Below, one piece after another: positions 7,917-8,714 of a stretch of DNA of 39,681 bases (within the stretch, counting starts at the first letter, position 1; every line of letters begins with the position of its first letter). Source of the stretch: Escherichia coli (lineage in GTDB: Bacteria > Pseudomonadota > Gammaproteobacteria > Enterobacterales > Enterobacteriaceae); assembly GCF_003334815.1 (NCBI RefSeq), contig NZ_QOWO01000035.1. One strand, 5' to 3'. The notes below the pieces were generated by a model that was given only the letters and a program-made list of their open reading frames with translations, made no database searches and had not been told where the DNA came from. Both the position numbers and the translations under genes were made by a program.

Positions 7917-8714
7917 AACTTGCTCCTTAGCCGTTATCGTTTCGAATATGTCATCCTTTTCATTATTTACATCCTTGTCCGAATCGTTGTTCAATATAGT
8001 AAACGCCTATAAGAACTTTACCCTTCGTGAACTAATACGTCTATTAACACTAATCAATACTTCAGATTTATCCATCACGCACTCCATATATTGATCCTAA
8101 GTAAGATTCCTGGTTGTTATCAGCTTGTAAATAGCAAACAAAAAGTTAACGTTTGCGGATTACTGCCCAAGAATAAGTTATCAATAACCAGTTTGTGATC
8201 TCTGAAGAATATTACTAAAGTTAAAATGTAATCCGATTTAAATATCGAGTCTCCTTGTTTCGACTTAAGCTGGCAATTGGATTGCCAGCTTTCTTTTAAC
8301 GCATTGAAATTACCTGAGTAAATAACGCATTCATGTCTTCAGGTTTTTATATAGCGTCTGGAGACACGGATATTTATGCAATGTAATCAACGCCAGTTGC
8401 AAAAAAATGAACCCGGATTACTTATTTAACCGCCCATAGCATCAACGCTTACGGAACTCTTTGTTCACTTTCCCACAGCACTTTTAAAACATTAAACCTG
8501 ACTACGGAAAATATCAGCCATGATAATGTTTGAAATGGCTAATTTGCCATAGAGTGAAAAAAATTAGATGAAATTCAGTAGGTTGAAATAATCACTAGCA
8601 GGTAATTATTTCAATGATAGTGCGCAATTGATCTACAACACTGCGTAGCGGAGAGAGTATTAATCGGATCATAGTCACATCAAGTGACTATGATCCGGGT
8701 GACAACCGGGGTAA
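7917..8714 (-). promoter_or_regulatory. Long AT-rich gadE upstream regulatory region (multiple promoters)
   Basis: About 800 bp of non-coding, AT-rich sequence between hdeD and gadE. From established knowledge gadE has several promoters integrating EvgA/YdeO/GadX/GadW/H-NS; individual sites not resolved by eye. Confidence 0.55.
8193..8298 (+). ncRNA. arrS: Candidate antisense sRNA inside the gadE leader (position fits ArrS), shown with its promoter
   Basis: On the + strand: -35 ttgtga (8193-8198), 17-nt spacer, -10 taaagt (8216-8221), then about 70 nt on a perfect 11-bp hairpin aagctggcaat / attgccagctt (8267-8291) followed by tttctttt. Confidence 0.45.

Follow-up and report, generated by a model that had tools for sequence, protein, structure and literature searches.

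The window, the whole stretch of 39,681 nucleotides analyzed here, covers the acid fitness island of E. coli in an orientation reversed relative to K-12. Its 797-bp hdeD-gadE intergenic region holds a small promoter-terminator unit on the plus strand, and the neighbors are those of K-12: hdeD, arrS in antisense, gadE, gadF, and mdtE (Table 1). An uninterrupted 407-aa open reading frame lies at 12569-13792 (−), where yhiS of MG1655 is split by IS5, and the AgrB coordinates are about 1.2 kb off the K-12 mapping. Since yhiS is intact without IS5 and AgrB is offset, the E. coli strain from which the window derives is not MG1655. Despite this, its hdeD-gadE intergenic region is identical to that of K-12; the identity of the whole window to K-12 was inferred from the coordinates of the features.

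Table 1. Features of the hdeD-gadE region, in window coordinates, with the identity of selected segments to the four most divergent sequences
Feature	Position	Strand	Evidence or remark
mdtE	5893-7050	−	Gene map of the window
gadE coding sequence	7390-7917	−	Open reading frame and gadE annotation; cis target gene of ArrS; ATG at 7917
Upstream segment	8108-8160		64-77% identity to the window, four most divergent sequences
Conserved 15-nt block GAATAAGTTATCAAT, upstream of the arrS −35	8171-8185		14/15 positions invariant in 8 Escherichia sequences; neighboring bases vary
Promoter segment	8193-8227		74-94% identity to the window, four most divergent sequences
−35-like hexamer TTGTGA	8193-8198	+	Matches TTGACA at 4/6; invariant in 8 Escherichia sequences and 7 E. 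coli phylogroup representatives
−10 region	8215-8224	+	C at −13, TAAAGT at 8216-8221, TAA at −6 to −4; matches TATAAT at 4/6
ArrS small RNA, 70 nt	8228-8297	+	100% identical to arrS b4704, NC_000913.3
ArrS 5′ part, outside the search pattern	8228-8266		92-97% identity to the window, four most divergent sequences
5′ seed UAAUCCGA (ArrS nt 2-9)	8229-8236	+	Pairing with the cfa mRNA leader; GTAATCCG invariant across Escherichia species
arrS intrinsic terminator	8267-8297	+	11-bp stem, UGG loop (8278-8280), UCUUUU tail; terminator scan, fold, simulation, repeat finder
60 nt past the T-run	8298-8357		33-45% identity to the window, four most divergent sequences
hdeD	8715-9287	−	Gene map of the window
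hdeA and hdeB	9542-10316	+	Gene map of the window; yhiD also near

The curated K-12 MG1655 record NC_000913.3 carries a noncoding RNA gene, arrS (b4704, "small regulatory RNA ArrS"), at 3657985-3658054, between hdeD and gadE and on the strand opposite gadE. All 70 of its nucleotides, GTAATCCGAT...GCTTTCTTTT, align without a mismatch to 8228-8297 (+) of the window, and the surrounding 131 aligned bases, promoter region included, are also identical between the window and K-12. Because the match is base for base, the promoter-terminator unit is ArrS. The original prediction had proposed ArrS from the position of the unit and named alignment to the published sequence as the check; the alignment to the curated gene bears the proposal out. 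It had placed the transcript at 8229-8297, which gives the correct 3′ end and misses the 5′ end by a single base, the curated start being G8228, 1 base upstream. We hold with a probability of about 96% that the unit is the arrS gene, running from a weak promoter to a hairpin terminator and producing a 70-nt noncoding RNA that acts both in cis and in trans. Presumably, ArrS is made and acts alike in this particular strain.

The RNA is therefore not new: the feature is a described E. coli sRNA. ArrS was reportedly described in 2011, and Aiso et al. (2011, 2014) are said to have presented it as an antisense regulator of gadE mRNA. Among the E. coli records displayed, arrS is annotated only in the curated NC_000913.3; those from RefSeq with PGAP annotation have no feature under the match. 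A scan of 8193-8298 with Rfam 15 gave no match at the gathering thresholds, nor at E-values up to 1. This blank arises because no Rfam family scores on ArrS and not because the RNA is absent.

The terminator is the most conspicuous part of the unit. A perfect 11-bp inverted repeat, AAGCTGGCAAT / ATTGCCAGCTT, occupies 8267-8277 and 8281-8291 around a 3-nt loop, and the T-run TCTTTT follows directly after the stem at 8292-8297. We scanned both strands of the 39.7-kb window for terminators whose stem is perfect over no fewer than 9 bp, whose loop is 3 to 8 nt long, and whose tail is T-rich. Only 3 sites qualify, against an expectation of 0.11 such sites per simulation in first-order Markov simulations of the window, and the arrS hairpin, whose arms were confirmed by the repeat finder, is the strongest site within 7000-10000 in the terminator scan. 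The arrS terminator is far beyond chance. The fold of the 69-nt RNA, −20.2 kcal/mol, has a z-score of −4.2 relative to dinucleotide shuffles. ArrS thus ends at its own Rho-independent terminator, and the strong intrinsic terminator originally predicted, an 11-bp stem with a T-run, is found exactly where it had been placed. The only change seen in the stem is A8268 to G, which retains a G-U pair at the stem base; it is carried by B2 strains (Nissle 1917, TUM1586), E. albertii, and one other lineage. No usable covariation was found, the stems being nearly invariant with this one A-U to G-U change. Weak hairpins were also predicted in the 5′ half of ArrS; these are unsupported, and a 3-nt deletion in E. 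albertii would break the first of them.

The promoter is far less conspicuous. Its hexamers, TTGTGA and TAAAGT, and the 17-nt spacer between them can be read directly from the sequence as first proposed. Together they match the sigma-70 consensus at 8/12 positions, and since the threshold of the promoter scanner is 9/12, the arrS promoter was not listed. At 8/12, a match is expected about every 324 nt of strand in this window, and the plus strand of this intergenic region alone has 6, so the hexamers by themselves are no evidence for a promoter. What makes the arrS promoter credible is its geometry relative to G8228 and its conservation across Escherichia species. The curated 5′ end follows the last base of the −10 hexamer at a distance of 7 nt, the expected spacing. 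The C at −13 does not vary between species, nor does the pattern TA.A.T. In two species the −10 reads TAAAAT or TAGAAT, and TAAAAT is one position nearer the consensus than TAAAGT. A C at −13 and a downstream TAA suit sigma-S promoters, and from its bases the arrS −10 region appears compatible with sigma-S. The promoter has been reported to be sigma-S- and GadE-dependent and acid-induced (PMC6755755). Of the plausible sigma-70 promoter in the original prediction, the elements and their geometry stand; the hexamers are at chance level, and the reported dependence is on sigma-S and GadE rather than on plain sigma-70.

A GAD-box scan of the intergenic region with TTAGGATTTTGTTATTTAAA gave 12-13/20 at best, a score common within the window, and no match above chance. 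The reported GadE dependence is therefore not visible in the sequence near the promoter. The arrS promoter stands back to back with gadE P1, their starts 187 bp apart, and between them lies the conserved block GAATAAGTTATCAAT, which has no GAD-box match. In E. coli, the block runs into a palindrome, GTTAT-CA-ATAAC (8177-8188), whose right half is unconserved in E. whittamii. Its conservation and placement make the block a candidate site for an activator. Upstream of the gadE P3 start, at 8583-8614, there is an imperfect 13-nt inverted repeat, TTGAAATAATCAC / GTAATTATTTCAA; it could be a regulator site, and it contains the best GAD-box-like match of the region, 13/20 at 8595, which is at chance level.

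The gadE mRNA has three sets of 5′ ends, T1 at −124, T2 at −324/−317, and T3 at −566 (PMC3708157). Converted to window coordinates, these starts fall at 8041 for T1, 8241/8234 for T2, and 8483 for T3. Counted from the gadE ATG, ArrS spans −311 to −380, so that it lies wholly within the T3 leader, to which it is fully complementary. Its overlap with T2 is limited to the first 7-14 nt, and there is none with T1. The predicted arrangement, a plus-strand unit of about 70 nt antisense to the gadE leader, is thus what the window contains, and three other Escherichia lineages share it.

Published experiments connect this overlap with processing. Overexpression of ArrS has been linked to a stabler gadE T2 mRNA derived from T3, whose 5′ UTR is complementary to ArrS, and direct cleavage of T3 guided by ArrS lacks an in vitro demonstration (PMC6872547). 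In a transcriptome-wide map, ArrS contains a site cleaved by RNase III (PMC6212723). Overexpressed ArrS raises acid survival; deletion of arrS gives no acid-shock phenotype and leaves cfa unaffected at pH 5 (PMC6755755). In the window, the T2 ends fall inside the 70-bp ArrS:T3 duplex, a geometry that fits the processing model.

ArrS also acts away from its own locus. It was recovered by RIL-seq as an Hfq-dependent sRNA whose partners are enriched for acid-response genes (PMC5145812). For K-12, the literature describes an RNA of about 70 nt that accumulates in the cell and binds Hfq (PMC11979758, PMC5145812). Using RNAduplex, we found ArrS nt 2-9 perfectly paired with −96 to −103 of cfa, with C7 opposite G-101. 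The energy of the ArrS-cfa duplex alone is not significant relative to shuffles (p ~0.13). Pairing at the RNase E site of cfa and the resulting activation have been proven by the compensatory mutations ArrS C7G and cfa G101C (PMC6755755), and the computed C7/G-101 pair is the same as that of these mutants. This seed register gives independent support for G8228 as nucleotide 1. A further target, fepA, is repressed by ArrS, and the terminator loop, Hfq, and RNase E are needed for this (PMC11979758).

We then considered how widely the unit is conserved. The 301 bp around ArrS are present at no less than 95% identity in 5412 of the 5426 complete E. coli genomes, and the 797-bp intergenic region is 95-100% conserved within the species. 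In an alignment of seven E. coli genomes that span the identity range of the matches, O157:H7 and Nissle 1917 among them, the promoter and ArrS are invariant but for two changes, T8227 to A (position −1) in O157:H7 and the A8268 to G change described above. When species-representative genomes were scanned with a sequence pattern, the terminator turned up in E. albertii, E. whittamii, two other Escherichia species, and two divergent "E. coli" lineages. The pattern required the terminator, so that conservation of 8269-8297 in these loci is true by construction. In those checked, E. albertii, E. whittamii, and a divergent lineage, the order hdeD-arrS (antisense)-gadE-mdtE is kept, and ArrS lies about 312 nt from the gadE ATG (312 nt in E. 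whittamii). Outside the search pattern, identity is highest across the 5′ part of ArrS and lowest past the T-run (Table 1), which suggests selection on the RNA itself in E. albertii and E. whittamii as well as in related lineages.

One match fell outside the genus. The region mdtF-gadE-arrS-hdeD-yhiD also occurs, 99.6% identical to E. coli genomes, on the 8635-bp contig NZ_JAUFQN010000010.1, which belongs to a "Flavobacterium paronense" assembly. Contamination of this assembly with E. coli DNA is almost certain.

Conservation of the 70-nt island could also reflect constraint on the DNA, with the gadE P2 core promoter and sites for transcription factors and H-NS being maintained and the plus-strand transcript a by-product. 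The T2 starts at 8234/8241 place the P2 core promoter within 8241-8280, beneath the body of ArrS, the intergenic region is conserved along its whole length within E. coli, and it is densely protein-bound (PMC12266141); the arrS deletion, moreover, has no acid phenotype (PMC6755755). However, a promoter on the opposite strand would need neither hairpin, T-run, nor boundary, and between species conservation stops sharply at the last T of the tail, with the hairpin and T-run intact. The 5′ seed through which cfa is regulated in trans does not vary, Hfq-bound ArrS has specific partners (PMC5145812), its base-pairing function is proven by compensatory mutations (PMC6755755), and regulatory phenotypes from changes in the seed or the terminator loop are in part on record for cfa and fepA. 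As the full account of the island, DNA-level constraint is very improbable. The gadE P2 promoter probably contributes to the conservation, without explaining the kept T-run or the boundary.

Less probable still, to the point of being negligible, is a hairpin that serves mainly the minus strand, as a structural or processing element of the T3 leader or a terminator or attenuator of gadE, with the plus-strand reading incidental. Because the stem is perfectly palindromic, the 11-bp hairpin does form in the T3 leader as well, but AAGTCGAAAC rather than a T-run follows it there, the terminator scan lists it on the plus strand only, and T3 has to read through it to reach gadE. On the plus strand, the RNA bounded by precisely these ends is curated and has served in experiments. 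With the T-run missing, the hairpin should not terminate T3, and the terminator or attenuator form of this reading was rejected.

With ArrS taken as a small RNA acting in cis and in trans, the mechanism can be drawn together as follows. Transcription from the weak, activator- and sigma-S-dependent TTGTGA-17-TAAAGT promoter would start at G8228, and the 11-bp hairpin with its U-tract would halt it at 8297. In cis, ArrS would pair perfectly with −311 to −380 of T3, and the resulting 70-bp duplex would be an RNase III substrate. Processing of T3 would yield a shorter, stabler gadE mRNA resembling T2, and more GadE would in turn activate arrS, closing a positive loop in acid resistance. In trans, the seed of Hfq-associated ArrS pairs with the cfa leader and masks the RNase E site, activating cyclopropane fatty acid synthase, and the terminator loop is needed for repression of fepA.

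The T2 5′ ends at −317/−324 lie 7-14 nt inside arrS, so T2 may be a processed species, and P2 and arrS may occlude each other. Tentatively, we suggest that much of what is called T2 might be the product of RNase III cleavage of T3 guided by ArrS and that arrS transcription and real initiation at P2 might be mutually exclusive through head-on occlusion; we would not yet bet on this proposal. Part of this reading was reportedly suggested already by Aiso et al. in 2014.

The closest known system is ArrS of E. coli K-12 itself. The 70-nt sequence, the promoter region, the position and orientation relative to hdeD and gadE, and the cfa seed register are all the same. No sequence difference separates the two; the host strain here is a non-MG1655 strain with an intact yhiS.

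GadY, the other cis-antisense and trans-acting sRNA of this island, lies at 1308-1421 (−) of the window (Rfam RF00122, 150 bits), where K-12 has gadY between gadX and gadW. Like ArrS, it is a small sigma-S-linked RNA of the acid fitness island with its own terminator, it overlaps the mRNA of a gad regulator on the opposite strand, where RNase III-type processing stabilizes the target, and it has Hfq-dependent trans partners (PMC5145812). Unlike ArrS, which overlaps a 5′ UTR, GadY overlaps the 3′ UTR of gadX. The two have no sequence similarity, and GadY has an Rfam family (RF00122) whereas ArrS has none.

RydC resembles ArrS in its trans action. We take UCCGAU near the 5′ end to be common to both RNAs. 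RydC, too, is an Hfq-dependent activator of cfa; the sites of the two RNAs in the long cfa 5′ UTR overlap, and in both a 5′-terminal seed protects the RNase E site (PMC6755755). In contrast to ArrS, RydC is pseudoknotted, purely trans-encoded, and from another locus, and an acid-sensitive phenotype results from deletion of rydC only, not of arrS (PMC6755755).

Several other RNAs and repeats were seen in the window. An Rfam ES205 match at 7200-7271 (−), 105 bits against a gathering score of 86, falls within the gadE-mdtE interval where K-12 has the sRNA GadF (b4718), derived from the gadE 3′ UTR; with the GadF interval on one side and arrS on the other, gadE has an sRNA gene on either flank. 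The AgrB family is represented by two tandem copies, at 16704-16787 and 16935-17018 (−), which score 108 and 106 bits and correspond to agrA and agrB, next to the dinQ toxin gene and upstream of arsR. A marginal ES036 match (42 bits, gathering score 37.6) at 25796-25836 (−) lies roughly in the pitA-uspB intergenic region by K-12 mapping. A CRISPR-DR32 match at 7738-7774 (−), inside the gadE coding sequence, was rejected as chance (22.7 bits against a gathering score of 48; E = 0.83). Finally, 18 nt downstream of the hdeD stop codon, at 8665-8697, lies an inverted repeat whose 14-bp stem is perfect and encloses a 5-nt loop. Its RNA fold is −26.1 kcal/mol (z = −6.2), and a T-run follows on neither strand. 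B2 strains have the same stem and differ at 3 of the 5 loop positions. This repeat may be a stabilizer of the hdeD 3′ end, an atypical terminator, or a protein site.

Automatic annotation misses arrS, yet sequence alone led to the correct recovery of a real sRNA gene. ArrS has been studied since 2011 as a dual cis and trans regulator, of acid resistance through gadE, of membrane lipids through cfa, and of iron uptake through fepA. Taken with the sharp between-species island ending at the T-run, the processing reading of T2 would, if true, make ArrS, and not P2, the functional element that the genus Escherichia has conserved in this segment.
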